From an uncultured Bacilli bacterium (GTDB lineage Bacteria > Bacillota_I > Bacilli_A > RF39 > UBA660): DNA of 64,000 bases. Made by a program: the position numbers and the translations under genes. The notes under the pieces are model-generated. The model was not told the DNA's origin. It did not search any database and saw nothing but the letters and a program-made list of their open reading frames with translations. Numbering within the stretch: position 1 is the first letter of the stretch; each line of letters starts with the position of its first letter. Where the stretch lies: positions 8,496-72,495 of the forward strand of contig CAKONK010000002.1 of the NCBI GenBank assembly GCA_934097085.1, read 5' to 3'. Shown here piece by piece: positions 9,334 to 31,294 of this stretch.

Positions 9334-9412
9334 TAATCCAATAATTTTCTTTTTGATAAGATCACCTTCTTTTTAGGAGATATTAACTCTTATTTTAATA
9401 TATGTCAAATTT

Positions 9413-13029: not shown

Positions 13030-13073
13030 CCACCTGCAAAAACATTATAACACATAACATACATTATATAATA

Positions 13074-14971: not shown

Positions 14972-15394
14972 ATGATAATTTCATATAATTCAAAAGAACT
15001 TGATTTACTTGCAAGAATAATGCGTGCGGAAGCATTAAATGAAGGGGAACTAGGAATGCTAATGGTTGGAAATGTTGTAGTAAATAGAGTTTTAGCAAAC
15101 TGTTTAACTTTTAAAAATATTAATAGTGTTTATAATGCAATTTATCAAAAAAATCAATTTGTGGGAACTACAAGTTCTTTATTCGAAGCAGCTGCGACTA
15201 CAATGGAAAAAAATCTAGCAAAAAGAATTTTAAATGGTGAGTATTATTATCCCGCAACAAACGCATTATGGTTTTATGCTCCGAAAAAAGGTGATTCTTG
15301 TAAAAATACTTGGTATACTCAAAACCTATCTGGAAGATATAAAAACCATTGTTTTTATAAACCGGATCCCGGAGTTTGTAAGGAAATCCATTAA
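14972..15394 (+). CDS. cwlJ: CwlJ/SleB-family spore cortex-lytic cell-wall hydrolase (Hydrolase_2 domain)
   Basis: 140 aa. LDLLARIMRAEALNEGELGMLMVGNVVVNRV...NQFVG...LWFYAP...WY...HCFYKP closely follows the CwlJ pattern (B. subtilis CwlJ is about 142 aa). Confidence 0.8.
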   Translation: MIISYNSKELDLLARIMRAEALNEGELGMLMVGNVVVNRVLANCLTFKNINSVYNAIYQKNQFVGTTSSLFEAAATTMEKNLAKRILNGEYYYPATNALWFYAPKKGDSCKNTWYTQNLSGRYKNHCFYKPDPGVCKEIH

Positions 15395-15406: not shown

Positions 15407-17503
15407 TTAACTAACCTTTAATTCATCATTGACATAATCAACATTAACTATCGTATTAGGTTTGATTTCATTATTTATAAGTTTTTTAGCAATTAATGTT
15501 TCTAGTTTATTATTAACAAGTCTTTTAAGTGGTCTTGCTCCATAATATTCATCATAACCATTATCTATGAAATAATTTTTAGCATTATCAGTAAGATTAA
15601 TTTTTACATTAATATCAATTAATCTTTTTTCAATTTCTTCGATAATCTTATCAAGAATTTCCTTTAAATCAGATTTTGACAATTTGTTGAAAATAATTAT
15701 TTCATCAAGTCTATTTAAAAATTCTGGTTTAAAATATTTTGGAAGTTCTGAAGTAACTTTATCTTCTTCACCATTAATTATATATTCACTTCCAACATTT
15801 GAGGTCATTATAATTATTGTATTTTTAAAATCCACTGTACGACCGTTAGAATCAGTAAGTCTACCTTCATCAAGAATTTGTAATAATAAATTTAGTACAT
15901 CTGGATGGGCTTTTTCAATTTCATCAAAAAGCACTATTGAATAAGGATTTCTTCTTACTTTTTCTGTAAGTTGTCCACCTTCTTCATAACCGACATAACC
16001 TGGAGCTGCACCTATAAGTCTTGATACAGAGTATTTTTCCATATATTCACTCATATCTATTCTTACCATATGATGTTCATCATCAAATAGTTCATATGCA
16101 AGACTTCTTGCAACTTCAGTTTTACCTACTCCTGTTGGACCTAAAAACATAAATGAACCAATGGGTCTATTAGGATCTTTGATACCACTTCTTGATCGAA
16201 TAATTGCATCGGATACAAGTTTTAAAGCATTATCTTGACCTTTAACTCTTTTTCTTAAATTATCCTCAAGGTTAAGAATTTTTTCTTTTTCACTACTCAT
16301 AAGTTTAGAAATAGGAATATTTGTCCATTTACTAATTACATTTGCAATATCTTCATTTGTAACAGTATCAGATAAAATACCCTCTTTACCCTTTTTAGAA
16401 AGATCATCAAGTTTAATTTTAAGTTCTGGTAATATACCATTTTTTATCCTTGCGGCTGTTTCTAAATCATAATTATTTTCGGCTTGTTCAAGTTCAAATG
16501 TATATTTAGATATGTCAGACTTAACTTTTTTAATATCTTCGTTGATTGATTTTTCCTCTTTCCATTTAGAACTCAATTCTTGTTCTTTACCTTTTAAATC
16601 GTAAAGCTCTTCATCTATCTTTTCAAGTCTTTTTATAGAAAGTTCATCTTTTTCTTTTTTTAATGCTTCTTTTTCAACTTGTAATGTTAATATTTTTCTA
16701 GTTATTTCATCAAGAGCTGTTGGAACACTATCCATTTGGACTCTTATTGTAGCACAGGCTTCATCAACAAGGTCTATTGCTTTATCAGGTAAAAATCTAT
16801 CTGTAATATACCTATTTGATAAAGTTGCCGCACTTACTAAGGCTTTATCTTGAATTGTAACTCCGTGATATATTTCAAATCTTTCTTTTAAACCACGAAG
16901 GATTGTAATTGTGTCCTCAACAGTTGGTTCAGATACGGTTACTTTTTGAAATCTTCTTTCAAGTGCACCATCTTTTTCAATATACATACGATATTCATTT
17001 AAAGTAGTGGCACCAATTACATGGATTTCTCCACGTGCAAGCATAGGTTTTAAGATGTTTCCTGTATCCATTGCACCTTCAGTTGCACCAGTTCCAACAA
17101 TTAAATGAATTTCATCAATAAACATTATTAAATTGCCTTCGCTTTTCTTAACTTCATCTAAAACCTTTTTAAGTCTTTCCTCAAATTCACCACGGTATTT
17201 AGCACCAGCAATTAATGAGGCCATATTAAGTTCCCAAATAGTTTTATTTTTTAAACTTTCTGGAACATCACCTTTAACAATTCTTTGAGCAAGTCCTTCG
17301 ACTATAGCTGTCTTACCTACACCTGGTTCACCAATTAAGACTGGATTATTCTTAGTTTTTCTAGAAAGTATTCTAGTTATACTTCTTATTTCTTCATCTC
17401 GTCCTATAATTGGATCAATTTTACGATTTTTAACGTCGTCATTTATATTACGTCCATATTTTTCAAGAACATTTTCATTTTCTTCATTATTTTGATTAAA
17501 CAT
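15407..17503 (-). CDS. clpB: ClpB disaggregase (AAA+ chaperone) lacking the N-terminal domain
   Basis: 698 aa. It starts at the ...[11 protein letters not shown]...[47 protein letters not shown] segment. It has two Walker A motifs ([16 protein letters not shown]) and a long coiled-coil M-domain between NBD1 and NBD2. Confidence 0.92.
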
Positions 17504-17530
17504 AATTCATTCCTCCTTTTTACGTATATT

Positions 17531-17572
17531 ATTATACTAAAAATATTAGCACTTGTCAATTGCTAGTGCTAA
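17531..17572 (-). promoter_or_regulatory. CIRCE operator (HrcA site) overlapping a consensus promoter upstream of clpB
   Basis: TTAGCACTT-N9-TAGTGCTAA at 17546-17572, compared with the CIRCE consensus TTAGCACTC-N9-GAGTGCTAA. On the minus strand, TTGACA (17559-17554) lies inside the CIRCE spacer, followed by a 17-nt spacer and TATAAT (17536-17531). Confidence 0.8.
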
Positions 17573-17616
17573 TTATATTATACACACAATATAAAAAAAT
17601 ATGAATTATTTTAAAC

Positions 17617-18395
17617 TCATATTTTTAGCTTTTGACCTATTTGTAATACATTTGTGGAAAGATTATTCTTTTTTTTAATACTATCAACTGTAGTATTATA
17701 TTTTCTTGCTATTGCCCATAGTGAATCGCCCTTTTGAACTGTATATATTACCTGAGACGATGGAACAATTAACTCCTGACCTATACTTAAAATATTGCTT
17801 TTTAAATTATTTAAGAATTTTAAATTATCTACTGTTGTTTCGTACATATTTGCAATTTTATATAATGTGTCGCCTTTTTGAACTTTATAAATATTTTGAT
17901 TATCTAGATTAACACTACTACCCTTTATTTTTAATCTTTGACCAATTGATAATAAATTTGATTTTAAGTTATTAATAGATTTAAGATCATTAACTGTCGT
18001 ATTATATTTTTTTGCTATACTCCATAGAGAATCGCCTTTTTGAACTATATAATAATCATTTTCTTCATTTGAACCCTTTAATGAATAAGGAACTCCAATA
18101 TAATTTGCAAGAGCCTTAACTACTGCTTCCGCCAAATCTTCCCAATTATTTTTAATAAGATTTACATCATCACCAGTACTATCTAAAAATCCATACTCTA
18201 CAATTAAAGTTTCATTATTAGGGGTATCCCTAAGTAAATAATAATAATCTTTTGAAGGATTACTTGGAAGTCTTCTTTGATAATATTTTCTAACATTTTG
18301 GCCTGATGATTCTAGTTCTTTTGCAATTAATTTAGATAGTGCATCACTATTACGAAGTGCATATATTACTTCGGCACCGTCGCCACCTGGTGAGT
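17617..18395 (-). pseudogene. C-terminal fragment of a split N-acetylmuramoyl-L-alanine amidase (second half of the Amidase_3 domain plus 3 LysM repeats)
   Basis: The frame is open from just after the TAA at 18396-18398. My translation is LNSPGGDGAEVIYALRNSDALSKLIAKELESSGQNVRKYYQRRLPSNPSKDYYYLLRDTPNNETLIVEYGFLDSTGDDVNLIKNNWEDLAEAVVKAL..., followed by three YxVQKGDSLWxIAKKYNTTV LysM repeats. No start codon or N-terminal half is present here. Confidence 0.85.
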
Positions 18396-18408
18396 TTAGT
18401 TACCACTG
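18380..18408. repeat. Left junction (att): 9-bp core TCGCCACCT plus terminal inverted repeat
   Basis: The core is at 18380-18388. GAGTTTAGTTACCACT at 18392-18407 matches 14 of 16 positions of the reverse complement of 26873-26888. Confidence 0.8.
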
Positions 18409-18989
18409 TTAATTAATTTATTTTTTGTTCCAGCTGTAGCAATCGTATAAGCTAAATATACCATTATAATTTGATATAAAATAATATTTACTATAACATT
18501 TATTATAGTTGGTATTTTACACCCTATAAACCCAAATAAACCAGCTAACGCTAAACAAAATATTCCACTCCAAAAATTAGTCCAAGTTCTTTTACCTTTT
18601 GATTTATCCTTTGTGAAAGGCAATATAATTCCTACTAGTACAAACATCCATGCACTAGATATAAATTTTATATTATTATTTTTATTAGAATCTTCAGTGA
18701 TAAAAATATTGTTTAAATAATTATTTTCTTTATCAGATATTTCCTCCAATATAGAATTGTATTCGTCCTTTAATTTATCATTTTTATCTAATTTTTCTTC
18801 TTCTATATTAGTTATCTTTTCTAATATTTCTATCCTATTAGAAACCCTTTTATAATACAGCAAATTAGCATCAATAATTGGATAAAATACAATTAATAGC
18901 AAAATTACAAGAATAAATATCCAAGCAATACGTTTATAATTTTTTGAATTTTTTAATACACCTAATAAAATCTCCTTCATTAAATTCAC
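18396..18989 (-). CDS. Membrane protein (N-terminal TM, coiled-coil, 3 C-terminal TM), unknown function
   Basis: 197-aa ORF and the last gene before the left junction. Its stop, TAA at 18396-18398, is what closes the amidase frame. Confidence 0.5.
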   Translation of the reverse strand: MNLMKEILLGVLKNSKNYKRIAWIFILVILLLIVFYPIIDANLLYYKRVSNRIEILEKITNIEEEKLDKNDKLKDEYNSILEEISDKENNYLNNIFITEDSNKNNNIKFISSAWMFVLVGIILPFTKDKSKGKRTWTNFWSGIFCLALAGLFGFIGCKIPTIINVIVNIILYQIIMVYLAYTIATAGTKNKLINSGN

Positions 18990-19021
18990 ATCCTTTAATT
19001 ATAAAATAGTCTTTTTCATAG

Positions 19022-19741
19022 TTACCATAACCAAGGTTGCTCAAAACAATCATAAGCATCATCTGGGGATACAGCCTGTCTAAGTTCTTTATATGATATT
19101 GCATATGGTGGATATACATTATTTTTTTCATAAAAGAAAGGTTGTTCCCAATAATTATGATTTTGATCTTCAAACAAAAATGCTAATGTAGAACTCAAAA
19201 GTGTATAAGGTTGCCTATTTTTTTCAAAATAAACTCTTATTTTAACACTTTCATCTACCCTTATTTTTTTATCATAACAATAACTATACCATACGCTTTC
19301 GTTATCAACTAAATTATCTAATAATTCATAATCACATAATATAATGCCTCTTTTATTTGTTGAAATTATATCTAAACAATCAATATCGCTTTTTCCGATA
19401 TTCTTTATAACAATATCTTTATAGTCATGATTATCTTTATTTTTTATACTTTTGGGATAAACTATTTTATATTTCTTTCCTTCATTATATTTAACATCGA
19501 AAGTTCCAATAAAGATTTCCATATCTATATTAAATTTACACGTAGTATTTTCAATAAACAATTCTGGCTTATTTTCAAATTGCTTTTGTCTTTCTTGCCT
19601 TTCAATTTCTTTTTTTCTTTGTTTTTCTTCCTTTTTATTAAAATACATCGTAGAAATAAAATTTAATATCCAACCAACAACAATACCTATTAAAGTAGCT
19701 AAAAAACTATTACTGTTTATATAGTCAAACAAAGATTTCAT
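19022..19741 (-). CDS. Membrane-anchored protein (N-terminal TM plus charged helix plus unknown globular domain)
   Basis: 239-aa ORF directly downstream of the recombinase gene. No motif recognised. Confidence 0.5.
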   Translation of the reverse strand: MKSLFDYINSNSFLATLIGIVVGWILNFISTMYFNKKEEKQRKKEIERQERQKQFENKPELFIENTTCKFNIDMEIFIGTFDVKYNEGKKYKIVYPKSIKNKDNHDYKDIVIKNIGKSDIDCLDIISTNKRGIILCDYELLDNLVDNESVWYSYCYDKKIRVDESVKIRVYFEKNRQPYTLLSSTLAFLFEDQNHNYWEQPFFYEKNNVYPPYAISYKELRQAVSPDDAYDCFEQPWLW

Positions 19742-19780
19742 AATATCATCTCCTTGACTATATATTATATCATTAAAAAT

Positions 19781-21436
19781 TTATTTTTTACCATTTTTTC
19801 CATAAGGATTTCTAATTAAATACCTATTTTCATACATAAAATTAATTTCTGGTATTACATCATATTTAAATATAATATTTATGTTTCTATTTTCATCAAT
19901 TACTATCTTATCTATTAAAGTATTTATTAGCTCTTTTTTAGTTTTTTTTAAATCTAATAGTTCTTTTATTTTCTTGGTATAATCTGGCATTATATTTGCT
20001 TTATTCTTTATGTTTTTCTTTTTTATTTTTTCTTCTTCAATTATATTATTAATCTTTTTTAATTTAGTTTCTGATTCAACAGATAATTCTTTATATAATT
20101 CTGTCGAAATTATATTATTACATCTATCACTGTATAAAGTAGATAATTTATTCATAATTTGTTCTTTTTCTTTTAATAAATCATTTATTTTTTTATCTAT
20201 ATCTTCTGTTTCTTTATAAACATTTTTTTGTACTTCTTTATTTAATTCTCCTATATCTAGTTCTTTTATAAATTTTGATACTGAATTATTAAATTGCTCT
20301 AATATTTGTTCTTCTAAATAATCATAAGGATAAAAGTGTGAACTACATCTTCCTCTTTTTGGATCTCTAGAATATCTATTACAATTAATAGACCAATAAT
20401 TAAGTTTCTTTCTATAATAAACAGATAATCTATTACCACACTCTTTACAAAATATTTTTCCTTCTAAAATTCTTTTTGGTCTTTCTGTTTTTAAACTATA
20501 ATTTCTAGTTTTTCTTTTTCCTAAAGAATTAACATATTTAAAAGTTTCTTTATCTACTAATGGTTCATGAGTATCTTCAACTATTACCCATAAACTTTCA
20601 TCTAAAGTTATTTTCTTCTTTGATTTATAATTTACTTTTGTTTGAGTATGTTGAACCATATCTCCAGTATAAATTCTATTACTTAAAATTTTCTTTACTG
20701 TTGATATATTCCAACTATCTCTATCAATCAATCTAGAAGAATAATTTGTTTTCTTATATCCTGCCGGTGTGGGTACATTCATATTATTTAATCTTGTTGC
20801 TATTTCTGTTGGTCCTATTCCTTCTGCTCTCCACTTAAATATATTTTTTACAATTGGTGCAGTTTCTGGATTAGGTATTAAATGTCCTTTATCCAAAGGA
20901 TCTCTCATATATCCATAACTAGGCCCACTTCCTATAAATTTACCATTCTTTCTTTTATCATTTAATACATTTCTTATCTTAATAGAATTTTGTTTACTAT
21001 AATAATCATTACAAGCAATTATAAATGTTGAAGAATCATTACTAGCTTGATTTTTAAAACTATCATATGATTCTAATATTGATATAAATCTTATATTATT
21101 TTCAGGAAAAAATGTTTCAATATAATATCCTGTCATAACATGATCTCTACCAAATCTAGATAAATCTTTAACTACTACACAATTTATCTTTTTTTGTTTT
21201 ATATCCTCTAACATTTTTTGAAATCCTGGTCTATCAAAATTAGTACCAGAATATCCATCGTCTACATATTCTCCACATAGAATAAAATTATTATTTTTAA
21301 CATAACTTCTTAGTAATTCTTTTTGATTAATAACACTTTCACTATCAGATTCATATTTTTTATCTTTATCTTCTTGAGATAATCTTATATAGATTCCAGC
21401 ATTGAAATCTATTTCAGTTAAGTAAGTATTATACAT
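19781..21436 (-). CDS. Large serine recombinase (resolvase catalytic domain, recombinase domain, zinc ribbon, coiled-coil)
   Basis: AGIYIRLSQEDKD (catalytic Ser context), DDGYSGTNFDRPGFQKML, VVVKDLSRFGRD, the zinc-ribbon cysteines CKECGNRL...CNRYSRDPKRGRCSSH, and a long K/E-rich coiled-coil C-terminal region. Total 551 aa. Confidence 0.92.
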   Translation of the reverse strand: MYNTYLTEIDFNAGIYIRLSQEDKDKKYESDSESVINQKELLRSYVKNNNFILCGEYVDDGYSGTNFDRPGFQKMLEDIKQKKINCVVVKDLSRFGRDHVMTGYYIETFFPENNIRFISILESYDSFKNQASNDSSTFIIACNDYYSKQNSIKIRNVLNDKRKNGKFIGSGPSYGYMRDPLDKGHLIPNPETAPIVKNIFKWRAEGIGPTEIATRLNNMNVPTPAGYKKTNYSSRLIDRDSWNISTVKKILSNRIYTGDMVQHTQTKVNYKSKKKITLDESLWVIVEDTHEPLVDKETFKYVNSLGKRKTRNYSLKTERPKRILEGKIFCKECGNRLSVYYRKKLNYWSINCNRYSRDPKRGRCSSHFYPYDYLEEQILEQFNNSVSKFIKELDIGELNKEVQKNVYKETEDIDKKINDLLKEKEQIMNKLSTLYSDRCNNIISTELYKELSVESETKLKKINNIIEEEKIKKKNIKNKANIMPDYTKKIKELLDLKKTKKELINTLIDKIVIDENRNINIIFKYDVIPEINFMYENRYLIRNPYGKNGKK

Positions 21437-21701
21437 TCAATCCTCCAATCTTCTTACTTGACTGAGTATTAAGACAATTTAATAATACCGCATTATAAAA
21501 AAAATTACAGCGCATTATTTTCTTTTTCTATCTCTTCGATAAGATATTTTAAAATAAGATCTTTAAAAGTTATATTATTTTCATTCATAACAACACCTAC
21601 TTAAAGTTATGTTGTTTTTAGTTGTTTTATTATTATTTAAATTCATTTTATCCCCCTTTTATTCAATAAAAAATCCCTATATTATTTTTATATAAGGATT
21701 A

Positions 21702-21908
21702 TTATTCATTTATAACTGAATCAATATTTTTTATAATATATTCCATTAATAAAGTTTCCATTATAGATTGTATTGTAATTTTTTTATTTTCTAAAACTCT
21801 TTTAAGAGCCATTTTTGTATGATCATCAATTCTAAATTTAACTTGATTATTCTTTGCTAAAGCCATTTTTTCACTCTCCTTTCTAAAAATTGGTACTATT
21901 GTATGCAC
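21702..21908 (-). CDS. Small ribbon-helix-helix-like DNA-binding protein (candidate element regulator)
   Basis: The probable start is at MALAKNNQVKFRIDDHTKMALKRVLENKKITIQSIMETLLMEYI, a beta-strand plus two helices. RBS AGGAGAG lies upstream. A terminator hairpin lies just downstream (about 21665-21700). Confidence 0.4.
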   Translation of the reverse strand: MHTIVPIFRKESEKMALAKNNQVKFRIDDHTKMALKRVLENKKITIQSIMETLLMEYIIKNIDSVINE

Positions 21909-21974
21909 ATTAAATTTTTAAACACTATTTTAGGAAAAGGATTTTGATAAAGCAGGATAAACCTGTTTACAAAC

Positions 21975-21993
21975 AACTCACCAGTGGTGAGTT
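21975..21993. repeat. Perfect 19-bp palindrome built from two copies of the element-end (att arm) motif
   Basis: The palindrome is AACTCACCA-G-TGGTGAGTT. TGGTGAGTTT (21985-21994) is identical to 18388-18397 at the left junction. The half-site AAACTCACC corresponds to the right-end arm AAACTC(GC)CACC (26883-26894). Confidence 0.7.
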
Positions 21994-22049
21994 TTACCTT
22001 ATTTTATAAGCATTTATAAAATTAAGTAGTGTTTACACTTTTCATATTT

Positions 22050-22109
22050 GTTATACAATTGTATACTTTTGATTCCTTATATTATAAGGGGCGTTATACA
22101 ACTGTACAC
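22050..22109. promoter_or_regulatory. Two 17-bp operator-like repeats
   Basis: GTTATACAATTGTATAC (22050-22066; the core TATACAATTGTATA is a perfect palindrome) and GTTATACAACTGTACAC (22093-22109), with starts 43 bp apart. Further TTGTAT-containing repeats are AAATGTTGTAT at 22331-22341 and 22354-22364. Confidence 0.5.
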
Positions 22110-22504
22110 ATTTTTTAAAATAACTAACTATGTTTTTTGGTACTAAAAATATAAAATTATAATTAAAACTTAGTACCAAACTTTTTATATTGAATTTAAA
22201 GGGGGATTTTAGAATATGAAAAAAGCATTGACCTTTTCTGTAAGGCCAATGCTATAAATACATATAATTGCATTATTATTTCATATTCTACTATATTGTA
22301 TCACATGATTGTCGAAAATCAATTAGTAATAAATGTTGTATTAATCTTGAGAAAAATGTTGTATAAAATCTCTATAAAACCTTATAAATACTGCATTTAT
22401 ATAAATAGATACTTTAATAGATTCTATGTTATTGACAGGTATATGTAATTTTTAATTACTAAATTTTTACCAAAATAATACTGGAACTATAACAATTTTT
22501 TATA

Positions 22505-22897
22505 TTATTTATAATTCCATATTCCCAACTGGCCTTTTACTTTTATTGGAGTAATGGGTTTCACATCTTCCAAAACCCTTGCATATCTTCCAACTTCATA
22601 ATGACCTGCAATAAAATTATTTTTGTTTTTTTCTTTCTCTTTTTTTATAAACTATTCTGTCATATAAATACAATCAACTAAATTACACTTACATATTATA
22701 TGTCCATAATTAAGTTCATCTTCATTATATAGTTCAGATAATCCTTTTCTTTCTTTTACTTCTTTTCTTATTTTTGCAACTCCAGCTTGTATGTATAATT
22801 CTCCACGATAATTAGTTTTCCAACTTCTTGTTTCAATATATTTAACTTTATTTTTTATCAATGTAGCAAAGGGTTCTTTAATTGTTAATACTTTCAT
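22505..22897 (-). pseudogene. ASCH-domain protein gene interrupted by one in-frame TAG
   Basis: The track ORF (81 aa) ends ...CIYMTE at a TAG. The same frame continues FIKKEKEKNKNNFIAGHYEVGRYARVLEDVKPITPIKVKGQLGIWNYK and then TAA (22505-22507). This is the expected ASCH C-terminus. TAG is a genuine stop elsewhere in the window (for example at the end of rplB). Confidence 0.65.
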
Positions 22898-22914
22898 AAA
22901 CTATATTACTCATT

Positions 22915-24054
22915 TTAATCTAAAACTGCTTGTTTTAAGTCTGAAGCCAATTTATTCATAGAGTCATTTAATTTATCAATATCATGCTTTGACATAAAAT
23001 ATTCTTCACCATCATTACTACTTCTATCTAAAATATCAAATGTAATTCTATAAACATGATCACTTAATAAATTATTGTTTTGCCACATACAATCTTTTTT
23101 AGCTTTAATATAAAAATTATTTTTATTAATCTTTAATATATCAATATCTTCTGGTGATGAAACATAAAAACCTGTTGTTCTTACTTTTTTACTATTTTTA
23201 TATGTAATACCTTCTTCATCTACCTTTTCATACCAGTTAGAATTAAAATAATATAATCCATTTTCATTTTTGATACAATAATCCAGCAAATTACCACGAT
23301 ACGCATCTTTTAAAGCATTATTAGTTTGATATTCTTCACATGCTTTTATATATTCAATGCTAACACGTGACTCACATTTAACAGCCTTTTTCATAAAATC
23401 TTCTGCTGTCGTAACTACTAACAATTTTACAGAACCTAATGTTTTATCTGATAACTCAACTTTATGAGGTTGCGCTATATTACCTTCATCGTTTGAAATT
23501 ATAAATATTTTATCATCCATATGTAAATCTAAGAAAATCTGTTTTGAAAATAACGCTTTATTTAATAGTGGTATTAAGTAATCTACTCTAAAATTTGCCT
23601 CAGCCATTACTAAGTATTTTTGATCATAACCTTGATTTCTTAAAGAAATCATATATTGATTTTTTTTGAATGTCTTAACCTCTATTTGTGGTCTTTTTTC
23701 TATTGGAAACCAGTGATTATCAAACTTTACGAATGGAATAGCTCTCTTTTTATATTTTATTCCAATAACATCTGGAGCAATCCCCGCAGTTTTAGGATTA
23801 TAATCATAATAATCAGTAATTACTTCAACTTTTTCACCTTTAAAAACTTGAGGTAAAATAATTTTATTAAATAAAACACTTTCTGGAATTATATTTATCC
23901 ATCTATCAAAAATTCCACCCATATAATCTGCTTTAGATGTTAAAGCACCTTGCATAGGTCTATCACCTTGCATTTGTGTTAAATTAGCAATAAAATATAC
24001 TGCCTTTTTAGCATCATTAATACTTATTTTTACTTCATTCATACTAACCTCCAA
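22915..24054 (-). CDS. Candidate type II restriction endonuclease (PD-(D/E)xK-like motif)
   Basis: 379 aa, starting 3 nt after the C5-methyltransferase stop. IAPDVIGIKY ... QIEVKTFKK fits PD...ExK. No other family is recognised. Confidence 0.5.
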   Translation of the reverse strand: MEVSMNEVKISINDAKKAVYFIANLTQMQGDRPMQGALTSKADYMGGIFDRWINIIPESVLFNKIILPQVFKGEKVEVITDYYDYNPKTAGIAPDVIGIKYKKRAIPFVKFDNHWFPIEKRPQIEVKTFKKNQYMISLRNQGYDQKYLVMAEANFRVDYLIPLLNKALFSKQIFLDLHMDDKIFIISNDEGNIAQPHKVELSDKTLGSVKLLVVTTAEDFMKKAVKCESRVSIEYIKACEEYQTNNALKDAYRGNLLDYCIKNENGLYYFNSNWYEKVDEEGITYKNSKKVRTTGFYVSSPEDIDILKINKNNFYIKAKKDCMWQNNNLLSDHVYRITFDILDRSSNDGEEYFMSKHDIDKLNDSMNKLASDLKQAVLD

Positions 24055-24056
24055 AA

Positions 24057-25217
24057 TTATTCAGACATATCTGATTTTTCTAATAGTTCTAACAAGTCAG
24101 TAGCAAGCATTTGTATTACTGGAACAGAAACTGCATTTCCTGCTTGTTTATATAGTTGAGAATCGGGATATGGCCTTCCATTTATAACCGTAGGTAATTT
24201 GTATCCATTATCAATAGGAAAGCCCTGTAATTTAAAAGTTTCTTTTGGTGTTAACTTTCTGATACCATCATTTACTTTTATCAAAGGCACATTATGACCA
24301 CCAGTACCCATATTTGCTGTAAGTGTGGGGCAAACACCACTTTGGTTTTTTCTTACATACATACCTCTTCTACATTGATAAAATTCGTACATTTCATCAA
24401 TTTGTGTATTTAAATTTATTTTTTCTTTTTTATTAGATTTTTCAAATTCTTCATCTGACATAAAATAGTTTGGATATTTTTCTTTTGTATAATAATACTT
24501 AGTTGCATTTTCTTTTGTCAAATTATAATCAATAACCTTTTTTATATCTTTAATTCTTGATGCTTTATCTTTCTTCTTTATCCTACTTTCAATATCCTTA
24601 AATATTTCAAAATTTTTTATATCATTTTCATTTAATAATCCTATAATGTATATTCTTTCTCTATTTTGTGGTACATCAGTATAGTCCATAGTATTTAATA
24701 CTTTTTCAAAAACTGTATATCCACAATCTTCTAGTTTTTGTTTTATATGTACATAAGTTTTTTTATTATCATGAGCCTGCAAATTTTTCACATTTTCAAG
24801 AAATAATACACGTGGCTTATGAAATTTTTCACCCAGTTGTTCAATTAAATCTATAATATTTAAAAATAAATTTCCTCTATCATCTTCAAACCCTTTGCGC
24901 TCACCAGCAATACTGAATGCTTGACAAGGAAAACCACCATTCAAAATATCTATCGGTTCACTTAATATTTTATCATGTAATTTTTGATAATATTTTTGTT
25001 GTGCTTTATCTGTTGCTTGTTCTGGATGAAGTACTAATTTTATATCACCTTCTAGTAATTGATGTGAAAAATTAGTTCTATATGTTTCACATGCATATTC
25101 ATCTATTTCATTTGCCCAAAGCAATTTATATTTAGATTTTTTCGTCTTTGCATTTTTAAAACCTAAGCATATTCCACCAACGCCTGCAAATAAACTTCCA
25201 ACCTTATATTCAACCAT
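24057..25217 (-). CDS. dcm: DNA (cytosine-5)-methyltransferase
   Basis: The canonical C5-MTase motifs are present: I GSLFAGVGG, IV GGFPCQAFSIAG, VI FLENVKNL, VIII QNRERIYIIG, X AGNAVSVPV. Confidence 0.92.
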   Translation of the reverse strand: MVEYKVGSLFAGVGGICLGFKNAKTKKSKYKLLWANEIDEYACETYRTNFSHQLLEGDIKLVLHPEQATDKAQQKYYQKLHDKILSEPIDILNGGFPCQAFSIAGERKGFEDDRGNLFLNIIDLIEQLGEKFHKPRVLFLENVKNLQAHDNKKTYVHIKQKLEDCGYTVFEKVLNTMDYTDVPQNRERIYIIGLLNENDIKNFEIFKDIESRIKKKDKASRIKDIKKVIDYNLTKENATKYYYTKEKYPNYFMSDEEFEKSNKKEKINLNTQIDEMYEFYQCRRGMYVRKNQSGVCPTLTANMGTGGHNVPLIKVNDGIRKLTPKETFKLQGFPIDNGYKLPTVINGRPYPDSQLYKQAGNAVSVPVIQMLATDLLELLEKSDMSE

Positions 25218-25359
25218 ATGTACCTCCTTTCTAATTTTTATGTGTTAATATAATTATAACATAAAAACTAACTATTTTTTCTCTAATGTGATTTTTATAT
25301 TCAAAAATCATAAAAAAAGAAAGAAATCAATCTTCCTTTTTTCATATAATACTTATAAT

Positions 25360-26124
25360 TTAGAATATAGTATTACATTTTAAAATAATTTCTTCAGCTT
25401 TTAACATCCCTTTGGGAGAAATTGTACATTTCTCATTATCATATTCTATATATTTTTCATTATGCATTTGTTTTAATAACTTCTTAAATGTAGTTTTATT
25501 AGAATATTCTACATTTTTTATAAGTTCATCAACCACCATAGTATCATTAATATAAAGAATAATAAGAATTTTATCACAACATTTCATATTATTATCTAAT
25601 ATCCTAAATTTATCTTCAACACACCAAAGCAAATCAATCTCTTTATTAATTATTGAATCTATATTTTTTTGACATTCGGTCATATCTTCTTTTGAGAAAA
25701 CCCTATATAATTCTGCCAAAATCCATTTTGCACTTGATAATAATAAATTGGCATCCATTTTATTAGGAATAATATCGTTTTTGTGAATTGCTCCTCTTTT
25801 ATTTCTAATACAATACATAGCATATAATACCCTAGGAATTATTACTCTAATATTTTCTTCTACATTTTGAACATTTTCCCATTTAATTAAAATTGTTTCA
25901 TTAAAATTATTCAATTTATTTTTTAATGGTGTATAACTACCCGTTATCATATATTCAATAATTCTGTAAACAGTTTCATTAAATTGTCCCATTTCATTAA
26001 TAAAATACTGCCAATTTCCTTTAGAATATTCCTTTAAGCCTTTACAATAAGAATCAAATAATCCATTTGATAAATCGAGTGGAATTTCATTATCAAAAGT
26101 GTTCTTTATATTAGATACATTCAT
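25360..26124 (-). CDS. Unknown protein with a HEPN-like RNxxxxxH motif and a C-terminal winged-helix-like region
   Basis: 254 aa. CIRNKRGAIHKND resembles the Rx4-6H motif of HEPN/Abi_C-type domains. The C-terminal ...LIKNVEYSNKTTFKKLLKQMHNEKYIEYDNEKCTISPKGML looks like a wHTH. Its start lies 2 nt after the upstream gene's stop. Confidence 0.4.
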   Translation of the reverse strand: MNVSNIKNTFDNEIPLDLSNGLFDSYCKGLKEYSKGNWQYFINEMGQFNETVYRIIEYMITGSYTPLKNKLNNFNETILIKWENVQNVEENIRVIIPRVLYAMYCIRNKRGAIHKNDIIPNKMDANLLLSSAKWILAELYRVFSKEDMTECQKNIDSIINKEIDLLWCVEDKFRILDNNMKCCDKILIILYINDTMVVDELIKNVEYSNKTTFKKLLKQMHNEKYIEYDNEKCTISPKGMLKAEEIILKCNTIF

Positions 26125-26125
26125 A

Positions 26126-26716
26126 TTAAACAGATTTGCAATATTCTATAAGCATATTTTGGGCTAAAGAAAATTTAGAAGCCATTAAAATGATTTTGTT
26201 ACTTTCATATTTTAACCACTCGCAATTTTTATAAGATCTTGTAGCATTATTTGAAGAAATATTTAATTGTTTTAATACAGCAATGACATCTTTTTGCATT
26301 ACATCTCCTAAATTAGCGCTTTTTTTCCATAAAGCTAAAATTGTCCCTACTATTACTACATCAGGCAGTGCTCTTTTATTTGCAAACTGTTTTTTATAAT
26401 TTTCCCAAGTTTTCATATCTAAATGAATAAATGGTGTTTCCATAGTCGGATTAAGAGCATCTTTAATTAAATCCACTTCTATATCAATTTCTTTCGCAAA
26501 TTTTTCAACCGGAGATAAAATAGCCTTGCTCTCGTTATCTTTATTTTCGCTTTTATTTATAGCATTCAAAGGTTGAGAGTCATTGCACTTAATACTACTT
26601 AATACACTTTGCCATAATATTAAATTATTACTAGTTGCCACGACCTTATCATCTACATATAAAACTGTTTTAAAAATAGGCTCGTTTTCATTCATTTCTA
26701 TACACCTCCCTAACAT
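26126..26716 (-). CDS. Unknown protein, first gene of the two-gene cassette
   Basis: 196-aa ORF. The likely true start is MNENEPIF, with RBS GGGAGGTG. No motif recognised. Confidence 0.45.
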   Translation of the reverse strand: MLGRCIEMNENEPIFKTVLYVDDKVVATSNNLILWQSVLSSIKCNDSQPLNAINKSENKDNESKAILSPVEKFAKEIDIEVDLIKDALNPTMETPFIHLDMKTWENYKKQFANKRALPDVVIVGTILALWKKSANLGDVMQKDVIAVLKQLNISSNNATRSYKNCEWLKYESNKIILMASKFSLAQNMLIEYCKSV

Positions 26717-26740
26717 TTTAAAATAAACGATTGCAACTAT

Positions 26741-26794
26741 ATTATTACATAGTAAAAGTTTTTTGTCAACCTTAAAGGTTATTTTTGTAACCTT
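26741..26794 (-). promoter_or_regulatory. Promoter with overlapping AACCTT/AAGGTT inverted-repeat operator
   Basis: On the minus strand, TTGACA (26769-26764) is followed after a 16-17-nt spacer by TAATAAT. Half-sites are AACCTT (26768-26773), AAGGTTA (26775-26781) and TAACCTT (26788-26794). Confidence 0.5.
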
Positions 26795-26861
26795 TTTTGT
26801 TTATTTTTTAAACATTAGCGTTGGTTTTGCGCTTTTATAATTTTAATATCCTAATACCCAA

Positions 26862-27161
26862 TCAAATTATGTAATGGTAAGTAAACTCGCCACCTCCTGC
26901 ATTTAGGTGATTAGATAAAACAATTACATCGTTACCTTTACCAAAGAAACTTTGTGCTCTTTTTGGTCTAGAAGTTTGATCTAAAAGTTCATCTGATGTC
27001 CTTGTCATTGCATTTTCTATTCCTAATTCATCCAATCGTTTTTTTATATAGTTACTAATTTTTAATGTATATTCTTTTTCTAAAATTCCATTACCTGAAG
27101 AGCCACCATCAACACCGCCGTGTCCCGCATCAATTACCACCTTTTTAGCCATATTTATCAC
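26862..27161 (-). pseudogene. N-terminal fragment of the split N-acetylmuramoyl-L-alanine amidase (first half of Amidase_3)
   Basis: MAKKVVIDAGHGGVDGGSSGNGILEKEYTLKISNYIKKRLDELGIENAMTRTSDE...VIVLSNHLNAGGG, followed by 7 element-derived codons (EFTYHYII) and TGA. Confidence 0.85.
26872..26895. repeat. Right junction (att): terminal inverted repeat plus 9-bp core TCGCCACCT
   Basis: The core is at 26887-26895. The reverse complement of 26873-26888 is GAGTTTACTTACCATT. Confidence 0.8.
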
Positions 27162-27268
27162 ATCCTATAGTAATTTATGCAAAAGATAAAAAAAAGACTA
27201 TAAAAGCCCTAAATTCATAAAAAAACATTGTTATACATTTTTTATAAAAAAGTATTTATCGATATAAA

Positions 27269-28096
27269 TTATTTTTTATCATATTTATCAAGAAACGAAA
27301 TGTATTTTCCATCTTTCTTTGTACCTAAAATACAATTTAAATTAATATTATTCATCGAAGTAAATATATTGCTATCAATATTAGAATTTATTTTACGAAG
27401 ATTATTTACTAAATTTTTCATTTCTTTTCGTTTACTAGTTCCATCATCAACAATGCTACAGTTTTCAGTAAATCTACATGCACAATTAATAAATGTTAAT
27501 TCATTATAATTTTTCCATGCAAGCACCGCTGACTCCTTTACTAAATATAATGGTCTTATTAATTCTAATCCCTCAAAATTATCTGAATGAAGCTTAGGCA
27601 TCATAGTTTTAATTTCACTACCATAAAACATTGAAAGAAGTGTTGTTTCAATTACATCATCAAAATGATGGCCTAAGGCAATTTTATTACAACCTAATTC
27701 CTTTGCTTTACTGTATAAATAACCCCTTCGCATTCTAGCACACAGATAACATGGATTACCTTCCACTTTAGCGGTTACATCAAAAATATTAGTTTCAAAT
27801 ATTTCTATTGGAACATTTAGTAATTTAGCATTTTTTTCTATTAATTCTCTATTAATTTTATTATAACCGGGATCCATTACAACATAATGGGCTGTAAATG
27901 GGAATTTCCCGTGTTTAATTAACTCTTGAATACATTTTGCTAGTAAAAAAGAATCTTTTCCACCACTTATACAAACCATAATATTATCATTTTCCTTAAT
28001 AAGTTCATAATCAGATATAGCCTTAATAAATTTACTCCATATATCTTTTCTAAATTTTTTTATAATACTTCTTTCTATTTCAACATATTTTTCCAT
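27269..28096 (-). CDS. PP-loop ATPase, TtcA-like tRNA thiolation enzyme family
   Basis: PP-loop motif VCISGGKDSFLLA and cysteine motifs PCYLCARMRRG and NCACRF. 275 aa. Confidence 0.6.
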   Translation of the reverse strand: MEKYVEIERSIIKKFRKDIWSKFIKAISDYELIKENDNIMVCISGGKDSFLLAKCIQELIKHGKFPFTAHYVVMDPGYNKINRELIEKNAKLLNVPIEIFETNIFDVTAKVEGNPCYLCARMRRGYLYSKAKELGCNKIALGHHFDDVIETTLLSMFYGSEIKTMMPKLHSDNFEGLELIRPLYLVKESAVLAWKNYNELTFINCACRFTENCSIVDDGTSKRKEMKNLVNNLRKINSNIDSNIFTSMNNINLNCILGTKKDGKYISFLDKYDKK

Positions 28097-28147
28097 AATA
28101 CCACCAACTCATATATATTATAAAAAAATAGTAATTCTTGTCAATCA

Positions 28148-28825
28148 CTATTTTCTAAATTTCTTAATCCTTTCATATATAAATTCAATTTTATTTATCT
28201 CTTTTTCTGTATGATAATGACCACAGTACCATTTATCATAACCAATACATTCCTCGATTTTATCTAAAAATAATTCCATAGAATTATCAACTTTACTTTG
28301 ATCCACAAAAGGAAGAAACATTTCTCTAGGGATGTATTTATATGGACAAGTGTGAGAAAGAACTATATCAAATTTATTATTATTAACATTTTCATAAATA
28401 TTTCTCATTTCTTCTTTCGTAAGTTGTTCGGACTTAAACCATGGATAATCATATACTAATCGCATATTTTTATCAACTGAATATGCACCACCAATAACTA
28501 AAACTTTCATTTTATCAATAGTATAGACCTCACTAGATTTTGCAAATATTAAATTTGGGTATTTATCTTCAACATAGGCGACACCTTCAAAAAAATTAAT
28601 TTGTTTATATGTTTTAATATTTTCTGCTCTTTCTTCATGATTACCATTTATACAAAAAAATATTAATCCGAGTTTATTAAGTCTTTCTTTAACTACATCA
28701 TCAAAGTGATTTAAAAAATAATTAATACCTGCATCACCAAGAATAATAAGAATATCTCCCTTTTGATAATTAAAATTATCTAATCTTGAAAATTCTCTAT
28801 GAGTATCACCAGTTATATAGATCAT
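28148..28825 (-). CDS. Calcineurin-like metallophosphoesterase
   Basis: The motifs GDTH, ILGDAG, GNHE and GHYH appear in the expected order. Confidence 0.7.
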   Translation of the reverse strand: MIYITGDTHREFSRLDNFNYQKGDILIILGDAGINYFLNHFDDVVKERLNKLGLIFFCINGNHEERAENIKTYKQINFFEGVAYVEDKYPNLIFAKSSEVYTIDKMKVLVIGGAYSVDKNMRLVYDYPWFKSEQLTKEEMRNIYENVNNNKFDIVLSHTCPYKYIPREMFLPFVDQSKVDNSMELFLDKIEECIGYDKWYCGHYHTEKEINKIEFIYERIKKFRK

Positions 28826-28866
28826 AAATCCTCCTTACAAAAATTTTATCATAAAAAAACTGTCTT

Positions 28867-29451
28867 TTAAACAGTTCTTGCATCTTTCTTTTCACGAATA
28901 TTTTTGTCAAATAAATATGTATGAGCTAAATTTAAATCTTTATTTGATTCATTTGCTAAAGTATAACCATATGTTGTAATTGCATTTATATATGGCATAT
29001 CCATTTGAGGTACTTCAAATGTTAAAACCTCAATTTCTGGACTAAATGCTTTCATATATTTTTCTAAATAATTTATTAGTGTACTATATATAGAAAATTT
29101 AGTTTGTTCATCTAAAGCTTCGGATAACACTATCTCACCAACAATTGCATTATTTGCATTACCCCCAGCACATAAATTTAATCTTGAATAACCAATGTTT
29201 TGATAATTCTTATTATATATTGACAAAAACCTAATATTTTCTTCATTAAAAATTGAAAACATAACTGAAATAGTTCTTTTATAATTCTCATCAATTAATA
29301 ATAATGAATTTGTATAATTTCCCTTTGCTATTTGCTTTTTTGTATTTCTGCCTAAAATATCTTTACCAAAATTGTTCTCGAAAAATGTGTAATATTTTAT
29401 CATTACATCTTGATAATTTTCTTTATTAGGTTTTCCCCACTTATAATACAT
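28867..29451 (-). CDS. Hypothetical protein
   Basis: 194-aa ORF. No motif recognised. Confidence 0.4.
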   Translation of the reverse strand: MYYKWGKPNKENYQDVMIKYYTFFENNFGKDILGRNTKKQIAKGNYTNSLLLIDENYKRTISVMFSIFNEENIRFLSIYNKNYQNIGYSRLNLCAGGNANNAIVGEIVLSEALDEQTKFSIYSTLINYLEKYMKAFSPEIEVLTFEVPQMDMPYINAITTYGYTLANESNKDLNLAHTYLFDKNIREKKDARTV

Positions 29452-29493
29452 ATTTCCCCCTTATATATTTAAAATTTTAAAAATTATTTTAAT

Positions 29494-29567
29494 TGGAGGA
29501 ACCGACCAGATTCGAACTGGTGCTCAGGGTGTTGCAGACCCACGCCTTACCACTTGGCTACGGTTCC
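29494..29567 (-). tRNA. trnC: tRNA-Cys (anticodon GCA)
   Basis: The reverse complement is GGAACCGTAGCCAAGTGGTAAGGCGTGGGTCTGCAACACCCTGAGCACCAGTTCGAATCTGGTCGGTTCCTCCA. It has a short D-stem, anticodon loop CTGCAAC, T-arm ACCAG/CTGGT and discriminator U, as expected for tRNA-Cys. Confidence 0.88.
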
Positions 29568-29626
29568 ATAATACATAATATGCTTCCTTTCAAGCAATAT
29601 TATTGTATTATATTTTTTTATTAATG

Positions 29627-31243
29627 TCAACTTTTTAAATTAATTATGTATTTTTGATTTCTAATTGTTACTATAGCTTGAATTACACTAGCATCAACTA
29701 CTTTTTTATCGACTTCAAAGGCAATAAAATCTTTCTGATAATCTGGCGTAACATTTATCGCATCTGAATAGACTTTATCATCAACTCTATATTGAACTGT
29801 CATAAAGTCATTTGCAAATTTTCTTGGTAAAGTATTACTTTTAGGATAAATTTGATTTTCATCCGGATTATAATTAATATGTAATGTCAATATATAATTT
29901 CCATGTCTAGTAGAAGTAAATGGGGCTACAATAACATTATCATAAACATTACATTCTTCTTTAAAACACTTTTCGAATGTATAAAAGTATGTTTTATTTA
30001 TTTCGTAACTTTGAACTTTTAAATTAGTTTTTCCTAAGTATGTATCATCAAAAATTAATTTTTGACCCAATGCATAATTTCCATTCAATTTTAAATCACT
30101 AATTTTTTTAGTTCTTATATTTACATAAATATGTTTTGTTGTATATCCTTTTTTATTATTTACAGTACCATTATATATATCAAGCTTACTACCCTTATTT
30201 TTATCCTTAGTAGGTACTTCATATACTAAAGCAAAAGTTCTATCTGTTTTATGAGAAAATTCACTAATAACATTTTCTGGTGCAAAGTCAATAAAGTATG
30301 AACTCTTACTTAAATTAGGCTTAACTAAATTACTTCCTATAGCTAAATTAAACTGATTAAAATCAATTTTTTTTGTTATACCAGAATTATTTTTTAAATT
30401 CACTTTTAAAACTACATAATAATATCCCTCTTTTATAACATTACCATTATAATCCAAGTTACTAACCATTGCATCTTCGATAATTAATTGCATACCATTA
30501 TATGTAAAAGTTTTATTCATGCCATAACGCTGATCGTAATTTATATTTCTATTTTTTATTAAAATAATAATTAAAATTACTGCAAGAATTCCAAGACATA
30601 TTGTTACAAATAATTTATTTTCTTTTAAATAATATACAAACTCCCTTAATGATCTTCTTACTTTTCTTTTATATTTATAACTATTAAGATTAATGTTAAC
30701 TTCTATTTCCTCTGAATCAGCAAAATCATAATTCATTTCTCTTAAATCGGACCTGAAGTTAAATTTTTTAATATCAAAACCAATTGCTCTTATTAAAGAA
30801 AAAATCAAAAAAATAACTTGTAATGATGTAATAACAATTGAAAAATCTCTAATACCTCTTGAAAGCCTTGCACTTAAAAGTTCTTCACTAAGTCCAGATA
30901 AAACACCTCTTATATAAAATAAACATATAAGTAAAAATGTATAATATAGAATCATAAACAAATATAATTTTGTTGGTTTATTTTTATGTCTAAGAAGATA
31001 ATATATTGAAATAGCTAAAGCAAGTATAAGAATTATCCCAATAAATACTAAGCTTGAAGTATAAACATTTTCTAGTCCAATAAGTACACTTGATTTATAA
31101 TTATTTTTTATATAATCAATAAAAAATTTTACAATTAGAATACTTCTATATAATATAAATCCAACCAAAAAAGATAAAACTAAATGTATAATTCTAAATC
31201 TTTTAATTAAAAATGCATAAGGTTTTTTTAGTATCACTTTCAA
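29627..31243 (-). CDS. Large membrane protein (about 6 N-terminal TM plus an extracytoplasmic beta-rich domain), unknown function
   Basis: 538-aa ORF with a hydrophobic N-terminal third and one further TM near residue 210. Confidence 0.5.
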   Translation of the reverse strand: MKVILKKPYAFLIKRFRIIHLVLSFLVGFILYRSILIVKFFIDYIKNNYKSSVLIGLENVYTSSLVFIGIILILALAISIYYLLRHKNKPTKLYLFMILYYTFLLICLFYIRGVLSGLSEELLSARLSRGIRDFSIVITSLQVIFLIFSLIRAIGFDIKKFNFRSDLREMNYDFADSEEIEVNINLNSYKYKRKVRRSLREFVYYLKENKLFVTICLGILAVILIIILIKNRNINYDQRYGMNKTFTYNGMQLIIEDAMVSNLDYNGNVIKEGYYYVVLKVNLKNNSGITKKIDFNQFNLAIGSNLVKPNLSKSSYFIDFAPENVISEFSHKTDRTFALVYEVPTKDKNKGSKLDIYNGTVNNKKGYTTKHIYVNIRTKKISDLKLNGNYALGQKLIFDDTYLGKTNLKVQSYEINKTYFYTFEKCFKEECNVYDNVIVAPFTSTRHGNYILTLHINYNPDENQIYPKSNTLPRKFANDFMTVQYRVDDKVYSDAINVTPDYQKDFIAFEVDKKVVDASVIQAIVTIRNQKYIINLKS

Positions 31244-31294
31244 TCACCCTATAATAATAATATCACAAAATAAAAATGGTGCAAAGACCATTTG

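Follow-up and report, generated by a model that had tools for sequence, protein, structure and literature searches.

Several genes of the sporulating mother cell are known to be split by elements that a large serine recombinase (LSR) cuts out again. In skin, which interrupts sigK (SpoIVCA in Bacillus subtilis; CD1231/CD1234 in Clostridioides difficile), excision rebuilds the open reading frame (ORF) and the germline keeps the element, and in C. difficile the recombination directionality factor (RDF) is controlled by sporulation (PMC5025042). In SPbeta, which splits spsM of B. subtilis (SprA/SprB), the recombinase SprA is constitutive, and the small RDF SprB, placed under a mother-cell promoter, sets the timing. 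The non-phage element gin divides the late mother-cell gene gerE of Bacillus cereus ATCC 10987 (GirC; GirX), has a 9-bp common core and a very small, previously unannotated directionality factor (GirX, 42 aa), and occurs in several strains (PMC5595907). Here we describe an element of this architecture in a 64,000-nt window (contig CAKONK010000002.1; the window is the whole stretch of DNA analysed), which comes from a metagenome-assembled genome of an uncultured Bacilli bacterium. The segment 18389-26895 of its minus strand is an LSR element inserted in a gene for an Amidase_3 protein with three LysM repeats, and recombination of its attachment sites attL and attR at a central GG would take out precisely 8,507 bp and restore a 342-aa enzyme. 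We consider it probable, at roughly 60%, that it belongs to the sporulation gene-intervening kind of site-specific integrative elements, including excision timed to the mother cell.

Judged by its sequence, the element has the structure of the skin/SPbeta/vfbin/gin/yin class. The initial annotation had likened it to skin and SPbeta, and the structural half of that comparison stands (recurrent split, rebuilt ORFs, empty site), while sporulation-timed excision is what the promoter, a conserved micro-ORF and the likeness to SprA point to. With gin, our element shares the non-phage character, the 9-bp core, a late mother-cell gene as the presumed target and a very small candidate RDF. Unlike gin, which targets a transcription factor, it sits in a peptidoglycan amidase gene of an uncultured gut host with a reduced genome and belongs to a family that recurs, with exchanged defence cargo, in hundreds of species-level genomes; at 27-35 aa its candidate RDF is smaller still and is known from sequence, excision being predicted. 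Its recombinase aligns over the full length with SprA at low identity, and the logic of a constitutive recombinase with a mother-cell-timed RDF may well be the same; SPbeta, however, is a 134-kb active phage, whereas the elements considered here measure 2.9-16.8 kb and carry no phage structural genes. Skin interrupts the regulator sigmaK, so that its excision gates the programme, whereas here a terminal effector is split and excision would bear only on late lysis or the remodelling of the wall. A more distant parallel is XisF, the LSR that excises the fdxN element from a gene in the terminally differentiated heterocysts of Anabaena, in another phylum and another developmental programme; its family NF041201 is the second-best NCBIfam match of our recombinase (78 bits, far under the cut-off of 375). 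A literature search returned no described intervening element with an amidase as the interrupted gene, and the locus would add a CwlC-like autolysin target and an uncultured reduced-genome lineage to the rearranged sporulation genes sigK, spoVFB, spoVR, spsM, gerE and yabG.

The amidase gene is read on the minus strand. Its 5' fragment (26862..27152 from ATG; ORF 26862-27161) encodes residues 1-88 and reads MAKKVVIDAGHGG...NHLNAGGG, followed by an eight-codon tail, EFTYHYII, which is encoded by the left arm of the element, and a stop, so that the half Amidase_3 domain ascribed to this ORF was correctly recognised. The 3' part (17617..18388) continues with DGAEVIYALRN...; it supplies the missing half of Amidase_3 and then the three LysM repeats. 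Near the junction its frame has no start codon, as had been claimed; the opening of the frame, previously placed at 18395, lies at 18399, after a TAA stop at 18402-18400. In silico deletion of 18389-26895, which includes one copy of the 9-bp core, restores the amidase ORF: the fusion of 27161..26896 with 18388..17617 is 1038 nt long, in frame and free of internal stops, and yields 345 aa from GTG, the approximate size first proposed, or 342 aa from an ATG at 27152. In the rebuilt protein Pfam finds Amidase_3 uninterrupted over the junction (profile 1-173 of 174, 99 bits) and then three LysM repeats; the complete domain appears only after the join, and either fragment alone holds half of it. 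The possibility that the split gene is cwlD was ruled out by its score against the CwlD family TIGR02883, which at 77.4 bits lies far under the equivalog cut-off of 221.55.

The element carries its own LSR and is bounded by two sites with a common short core. Two copies of the 9-mer TCGCCACCT, and no more, exist in the window (18380-18388 and 26887-26895), against about 0.04 per strand predicted from composition. Just inside the junctions lie inverted repeats, in which 14 of 16 positions agree between 18392-18407 and the reverse-complemented 26873-26888. Both features had been reported for this locus and are reproduced here; the centre of the dyad had been put on the T of CACCTGGTG, and our analysis moves the axis of the attP arms to the CC/GG at 18386-18387 and 26893-26894 (the GG of A-GG-T). 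Such anatomy is expected of serine-integrase sites. attL (26866..26917, minus strand) consists of the host arm, the core at 26887-26895 and the left arm of the element GAGTTTACTTACCATTACATAA, with the predicted crossover at GG 26893-26894; attR (18358..18410, minus strand) consists of the right arm of the element AGTGGTAACTAAACTC, the core at 18380-18388 and the host arm, with the predicted crossover at GG 18386-18387. The junctions predicted after excision are ..AATGCAGGAGGTGGCGACGGTGCCGAAG.. for attB and ..GGTAACTAAACTCACCAGGTGGCGAGTTTACTTACC.. for attP. Across the family described below, attL has host sequence ..AAT CAC nTn AAT GCn GGn GG.. abutting GAGTTyAGTTACCAyTAC..., and attR has ..AATGGTAAcTaAACTC nnn AGGTGG abutting GAn GGT GCT GAA. 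GG stands at the dyad centre in every attL and attR of the family, which makes GG the likely crossover dinucleotide, and divergent arm sequences accompany more distant recombinases.

Thousands of relatives of the rebuilt amidase exist in public data, the best with 99% identity over 100% of 342 residues and many more at 90%. The joined product had been expected to be colinear with uninterrupted homologues, and the alignment is indeed gap-free at the junction, with GGGDGAE invariant. An intact allele (P0137) differs from the window at a single position in the N-terminal half (residues 1-88), and another (P0001) is nearly identical to the C-terminal half. The empty site that had been called for was found on a metagenome contig (L001), of which positions 1291-1605 match window 27201..26887 and 1598-3367 match 18387..16618; the element is absent, and the two matches overlap by 8 bp, on the core. 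The interrupted state is common as well, the exact 96-aa truncated product being present on 23 public contigs from several human cohorts and its 90% cluster comprising 130 such fragments. Because near-identical intact alleles coexist with a common interrupted state, the insertion site is polymorphic in nature. The identity of L001 to the window is 90.8% on the N-terminal side (26887-27201) and 98.6% on the C-terminal side (16618-18387); this jump across the attachment site points to a breakpoint of homologous recombination in or close to the insertion, so one flank may have come in along with the element. Separately, a 264-aa member of the intact amidase cluster (P0138) is a C-terminal fragment starting MPTFYDFGGG|DGAE.., unlike the right arm of the 18389-26895 family, a hint that the same Gly-Gly-Gly site serves an unrelated element family too.

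The element is one of many. Close relatives of its recombinase (69-98% identity) were located 279 times in species-representative genomes of GTDB and 306 times in metagenome contigs, about 585 in total, and their hosts are all uncultured gut metagenome-assembled genomes labelled Bacilli, Tenericutes, Mycoplasma sp. or Firmicutes CAG:884. We surveyed 80 genome loci and 83 metagenome and viral loci. An Amidase_3 C-terminal half starting at the junction residue lies 0.1-6.5 kb downstream of the recombinase on the same strand in about 65 of the former and 71 of the latter, most of the remainder being simply short of flank, and wherever the flank permits, an N-terminal half ending at residue 87-88 lies upstream of the recombinase. 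Altogether the split recurs in about 120 loci that represent many species of RF39-like gut Bacilli. Complete elements could be delimited in 47 cases (2.9-16.8 kb), and in-silico excision gave a full ORF with Amidase_3 and 3-5 LysM repeats in all but two of 27 rebuilt genes, those of L036 and L039 being truncated. Within the family 93% of element ORFs are co-oriented with the amidase, as are all genes of the window element.

The history of these elements is not that of their hosts. Recombinase identity shows almost no correlation with amidase-domain identity (Spearman 0.15, 325 pairs): recombinases that share 93% or more of their residues reside in amidases that are just 48-82% identical, and near-identical amidases hold different recombinase lineages (L013/L042, 93%; L049/L081, 95%). 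This lack of correlation argues that the family spreads horizontally and inserts repeatedly at one site, and it rules out vertical descent from one ancient insertion. The target consists of the codons of the conserved N-A-G-G-G-[D/E]-G-A-E motif, which is catalytic and hardly variable. No transfer genes were seen in the elements. At one locus (L119:3897-11410) the right arm and core are followed by unrelated genes, including one for a large N6-methylase-like protein, and by no amidase C-terminal half; this is probably a second, different element stacked at the same site. At four others (L026, L051, L057, L060) an intact second Amidase_3-LysM paralogue with the same CATAAAATT promoter lies on the opposite strand a few kb from the split copy, where it could buffer the loss of the split gene.

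The recombinase itself (551 aa; 19781..21436, minus strand) had been recognised as an LSR, and this is borne out by Resolvase, Recombinase and Zn_ribbon_recom domains, all above the Pfam cut-offs, with the catalytic serine in YIRLSQ (Ser20). LSRs also have a C-terminal coiled-coil region, and over its full length the recombinase is most similar to SprA/YokA of SPbeta (PDB 9dxd, E = 1.8e-18), to which residues 15-534 align; other matches are the phrog_95 integrase and phage integrases, the nearest of which is at most 36% identical. It is present in 47 of 47 complete elements and is their sole universal ORF among those of at least 45 aa.

Below that size, a second universal gene emerged. A micro-ORF of 27 aa (MNENNITFKDLILKYLIEEIEKENNAL; 21505..21588, minus strand) represents a family of 27-35 aa that ends 70-180 nt upstream of the recombinase, contains the invariant peptide FKDLILKYLIEEI and occurs in every subfamily; a strict motif search recovered it in 59 of the first 84 sequences scanned. 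Among 26 distinct DNA versions of its core, pairwise codon differences were synonymous in 1035 cases and nonsynonymous in 75, which indicates that the micro-ORF is translated and strongly constrained. Even L158 and L056, minimal elements of 2.9 and 3.2 kb that hold little else beyond the recombinase and a small two-gene module, have kept it. Five nt upstream of its ribosome-binding site (RBS; AGGTG) stands a putative sigmaE/sigmaK-type -10 element, CATAACTT (21604..21611, minus strand), and each of the 86 distinct versions has CATAA[A/C/G]TT at this distance, the only variable positions being the 'n' of the consensus, while the sequence farther upstream differs wholly between subfamilies. The -10-like element is contained in a 21-aa ORF (MNLNNNKTTKNNITLSRCCYE; 21581..21646, minus strand) that overlaps the micro-ORF and varies in amino acids exactly there, so the constraint at this position acts on the DNA. 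We take the micro-ORF to be a candidate RDF that would be made in the mother cell, because the layout matches SPbeta and the C. difficile skin element, GirX sets a precedent at 42 aa (PMC5595907) and purely helical RDFs exist (PMC12286644).

Between micro-ORF and recombinase many elements have a housekeeping-type promoter-like sequence, TTGCAA-N17-TATCAT, together with an inverted repeat; when the regulatory region was scanned for sigma70-type promoters, it matched no more often than shuffled sequence did. Upstream of the micro-ORF lies the gene for a ribbon-helix-helix-like (RHH) protein (54 aa from ATG; 21702..21866, minus strand) with weak RelB/RHH matches, a probable regulator. The window type of this protein (cluster c3) is found in 9 of 27 elements, all of one subfamily; most elements have an RHH ORF upstream, with or without a 99-aa winged helix-turn-helix (wHTH) ORF, neither being universal. 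The RHH gene is itself preceded in the window by a sigmaK-like motif, CATACAATA, which we rejected as a promoter since sister elements do not conserve it.

The promoter of the amidase gene leads in the same direction as that of the micro-ORF. A putative sigmaK/sigmaE-type promoter occupies 27171..27198 (minus strand), with the -10 CATAAATTA at 27179..27171, 5 nt upstream of the RBS. CATAnnnT(A) is placed 4-6 nt before the RBS in all amidase orthologues, which comprise 27 distinct upstream regions and proteins 43-100% identical. Within it C, A, T, A and T7 are conserved at 100%, A5 at 89% and A8 at 78%, and a C lies 17 nt upstream of CATA in 70%, mostly as AC, giving the consensus AC-N16-CATAnAnTA. 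SigmaE and sigmaK of C. difficile and B. subtilis have a common CATA-type -10 and differ in the -35 (ATA versus AC) (PMC3789822).

The same signature marks a restricted set of genes. The CwlJ/SleB-like neighbour (14972-15394) shows CATAnnnT-N5-AGGTGA-ATG in nearly all orthologues (65 loci), with AC-N17 in the window, and the CwlD-like gene (36039-36689) has CATATAAT just before its start. Among the 68 window genes, a proximal motif was found at the amidase, the micro-ORF, the CwlJ-like, the CwlD-like and a 150-aa LysM gene, at a 171-aa membrane ORF (14416-14931) that adjoins the CwlJ-like gene, and inside parA, the last being a likely chance copy. The invariant CA and this restricted gene set argue against sigmaA, as far as promoter sequences can tell. 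Of three sporulation genes that the initial annotation had placed in the window, cwlJ is better described as a gene with a Hydrolase_2/SleB-type domain and cwlD as a CwlD-like gene under the NCBIfam cut-off, while the ORF earlier read as spo0A (45740-46615) is of the ParB/Noc type.

CwlC of B. subtilis combines an N-terminal Amidase_3 domain with SPOR repeats and has no signal peptide. The rebuilt amidase is like it in that its catalytic domain starts at residue 5, no signal peptide can be read in the sequence, wall-binding repeats follow at the C-terminus and a sigmaK-type promoter appears to precede the gene; unlike in CwlC, the wall-binding module consists of 3-5 LysM repeats, and the likeness in function is presumed. 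CwlC is controlled by sigmaK and acts in mother-cell lysis, sigmaK driving the lysis amidases CwlC and CwlH (PMC3789822; PMC6403190). Among the related hosts is CAG-877, which belongs to RF39/UBA660 in GTDB; for RF39, sporulation on a reduced set of genes has been predicted (PMC10868615). The promoter makes the amidase a candidate mother-cell sporulation gene.

From these observations a mechanism can be proposed. The amidase would be a CwlC-like late mother-cell autolysin: it lacks a signal peptide, starts with its Amidase_3 domain, continues with wall-binding repeats and has a putative promoter of the sigmaK/sigmaE type. The recombinase would be expressed from a housekeeping-type promoter, and the micro-ORF, with its own CATAnnnT -10, would provide an RDF in the sporulating mother cell only. 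There the RDF would turn the recombinase to excision, and the terminal cell would regain its lysis enzyme, while the spore genome would retain the element and its defence cargo free of cost. By inference, developmental excision is a well-supported prediction.

A number of points weigh against this reading. The -35 of the window clade is TC and not AC, the micro-ORF shows no resolvable -35 and has its -10 within an overlapping small ORF, and the -10 motif embeds TAnnnT, which makes a sigmaA reading compatible with sequence alone. No relative of the micro-ORF was found in a PDB sequence search. The CwlD-like protein scores 181.8 bits where the NCBIfam cut-off is 221.6, the window contains no Spo0A-like ORF or sigma gene, and a motif search of about 2.5 Mb of host sequence yielded no sigma factors, a result of little information for a scope confined to amidase neighbourhoods; sporulation of the host is itself a prediction. 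The exact rebuilt protein is not among public records. Exact-pattern scans of metagenome and viral contigs for the predicted attP junction returned 0 matches, as did a fuzzy scan of 166 loci (right arm + 8-12 nt + left arm; terminal repeats; circular contigs), negatives that are weak because assemblies rarely contain minor circles. Finally, the elements are clearly mobile, so intact halves could merely mean recent insertions.

A wider form of the proposal, which we put forward tentatively and at somewhat under even odds, is that the family constitutes a lineage-wide germline/soma parking system for anti-phage defence cassettes. Attachment arms, LSR and a 27-35-aa peptide under a mother-cell promoter would carry any defence cargo at no cost in a lysis gene, excision would take place in the doomed mother cell only, and the system would hop between species because its target is an invariant catalytic motif. 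If so, the micro-ORF would be the smallest known RDF, and the family would give the first functional genomic evidence, together with a promoter signature, of a sigmaE/sigmaK mother-cell programme in uncultured RF39-type gut Bacilli. A large, horizontally mobile family with exchangeable defence cargo connects defence-island biology with mother-cell excision; its conserved attachment sites, compact recombinases and candidate micro-RDF are ready orthogonal integrase parts, and the common CATAnnnT layout could help to predict which genes form the sporulation regulon of RF39-type bacteria, whose sporulation is still a prediction.

The strongest competitor, which we regard as rather unlikely, is a purely selfish integrative defence island that uses the conserved motif as a landing site, knocks out the amidase and is excised rarely and without timing for transfer. 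The mobility of the elements and their decoupling from host phylogeny suit such an island, as do the defence cargo, the intact paralogue near some loci, by which a knock-out would be tolerated, the partly decayed appearance of the split genes in L036 and L039 and the failure to find excision products in the assemblies scanned. It would, however, have to accommodate rebuilt genes that are full-length in 25 of 27 cases, a mother-cell-type promoter that the target has in common with spore-wall genes, and a micro-ORF that carries the same -10 even in 2.9-kb elements; moreover, all characterised LSR elements in mother-cell genes act as developmental switches.

We consider improbable a reversible switch untied to sporulation, triggered stochastically, by stress or by phage in vegetative cells in the manner of active lysogeny, with the CATA motif belonging to a sigmaA-type or other promoter. 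The embedded TAnnnT would permit it, all the more as many copies of the motif read CATATAAT and contain TATAAT, and it has a precedent in the yin element, which is excised at all growth phases (PMC10747680), and room in the unproven sporulation of the host. Yet the CA before TAnnnT is invariant in both the amidase and the micro-ORF sets, a preference that sigmaA does not have; most amidase promoters show AC 16 nt upstream and no TTG; the motif in the window lies mainly at CwlJ-like, CwlD-like, LysM and amidase genes; and an amidase without a signal peptide has no obvious route to the wall of a growing cell. An assembly or binning artefact, a chimeric contig of the kind that a metagenome-assembled source might produce, is refuted with near certainty, because the same junctions recur on the 23 independent contigs and homologous junctions with conserved attachment arms occur in more than 100 other assemblies.

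Turning to the cargo, the initial annotation had described it as defence-like and not prophage-like, and this holds for the window element and across the family. The window element has no phage structural, packaging or lysis genes, and a prophage origin was ruled out by this absence and by the distance to the nearest phage integrase. Its one securely identified defence component is a C-5 cytosine DNA methyltransferase of a type II restriction-modification (R-M) system (24057..25217, minus strand; PF00145, 258 bits; MTase_II, E = 5e-101; TIGR00675). Directly downstream, a 379-aa protein (22915..24054, minus strand) is a candidate for the cognate restriction endonuclease; the two co-occur in 5 elements, and profile and sequence searches with the 379-aa protein gave no family or PDB match, so that of the R-M pair first proposed the methylase is secure and its partner has no recognisable family.

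A second pair, previously called HEPN-like, consists of a 254-aa protein (25360..26124, minus strand) and its 196-aa partner (26126..26716, minus strand) and recurs in L031. The 254-aa protein has an all-alpha N-terminal domain with an invariant R107-x6-H114 and a C-terminal winged helix (model with a predicted local distance difference test, pLDDT, of 89). The R-x6-H motif in the all-alpha domain is HEPN-like; a fold search with the model against the PDB recognised the wHTH domain alone and left the N-terminal domain unmatched, and the HEPN label is unproven. PDB sequence searches with the 254- and 196-aa proteins gave nothing useful. An ASCH-domain gene (22506..22897, minus strand) is disrupted by a premature stop after ..CIYMTE, the rest being readable in another frame, and is intact in the sister elements L004, L005 and L009 (130-134 aa). 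Two predicted membrane proteins of 239 and 197 aa (18396..19741, minus strand), encoded between the recombinase and attR, are variable cargo (clusters c41 and c40) found only in the window element and L005.

Family-wide, defence cassettes make up most of the cargo, as Pfam and PADLOC searches on 107 cluster representatives show. They include R-M methylases and nucleases, Gabija GajA/GajB, reverse transcriptases (Drt2, RT-TIR, RT-III-A), HamA (Hachiman), OLD/PARIS-type ATPases, Septu-like PtuA, AbiE-like AAA_21, Fic, SocA/Panacea and Schlafen-type helicases. PHROGs returned helicases, methylases and reverse transcriptases for these representatives, but no capsid, portal, terminase or tail family among the best matches. 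The two-gene module of the minimal elements (about 99-116 and 180-195 aa) lies between the recombinase and attR (L158:2937-3781; L056:6925-7820; also L004, L013, L031, L032 and L119), its larger protein having a conserved CYLTTACM..FDDNC..LR.FRD; a role in maintenance or addiction is conceivable, as is one as an alternative accessory factor of recombination.

Two further features of the control region deserve mention. A perfect palindrome, AAAACTCACCA-C-TGGTGAGTT, at about 21975-22000 (minus strand), upstream of the RHH gene, is kept in all c3-type elements and resembles the attP core/arm junction (AAACTCACCAGGTGGCGAGTTT); it could be a binding site for the recombinase or a regulator, or merely a terminator stem. 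Farther upstream, 22224-22322 (minus strand) contains a TG-extended promoter-like TTGATT-16-TACAAT and, about 45-70 nt on, a strong intrinsic terminator (AGCATTGGCC..GGTCAATGCT and a T run). An 81-nt stretch of it folds at z = -4.0, and 8 sister elements conserve the region, which shows up in them as a spurious antisense ORF cluster (c5); it is possibly a small RNA, and an Rfam scan of the element gave nothing credible.

Other parts of the window are variable too. About 4 kb upstream of the amidase (27202-31267), with a TtcA-like ATP_bind_3 gene, a metallophosphoesterase, a 194-aa ORF and a 538-aa membrane protein, are missing from L001, in which the amidase directly follows the 150-aa LysM gene, and the corresponding interval of another contig (L002) holds a methylase fragment and a LlaJI-type restriction gene. 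Because its content differs in these two contigs, the region just upstream of the amidase is a second variable hotspot. The interval 2500-13100 looks like another mobile or accessory region. By reading of the translations only, it contains a sortase (5571-6236), a Cna-B/pilin-like surface protein of 832 aa whose end is of the LPxTG type (6193-8691), a polytopic membrane protein (434 aa), an N6/N4 DNA methylase (10467-11210) and, at 11346-11840, a small sigma/HTH-like ORF.

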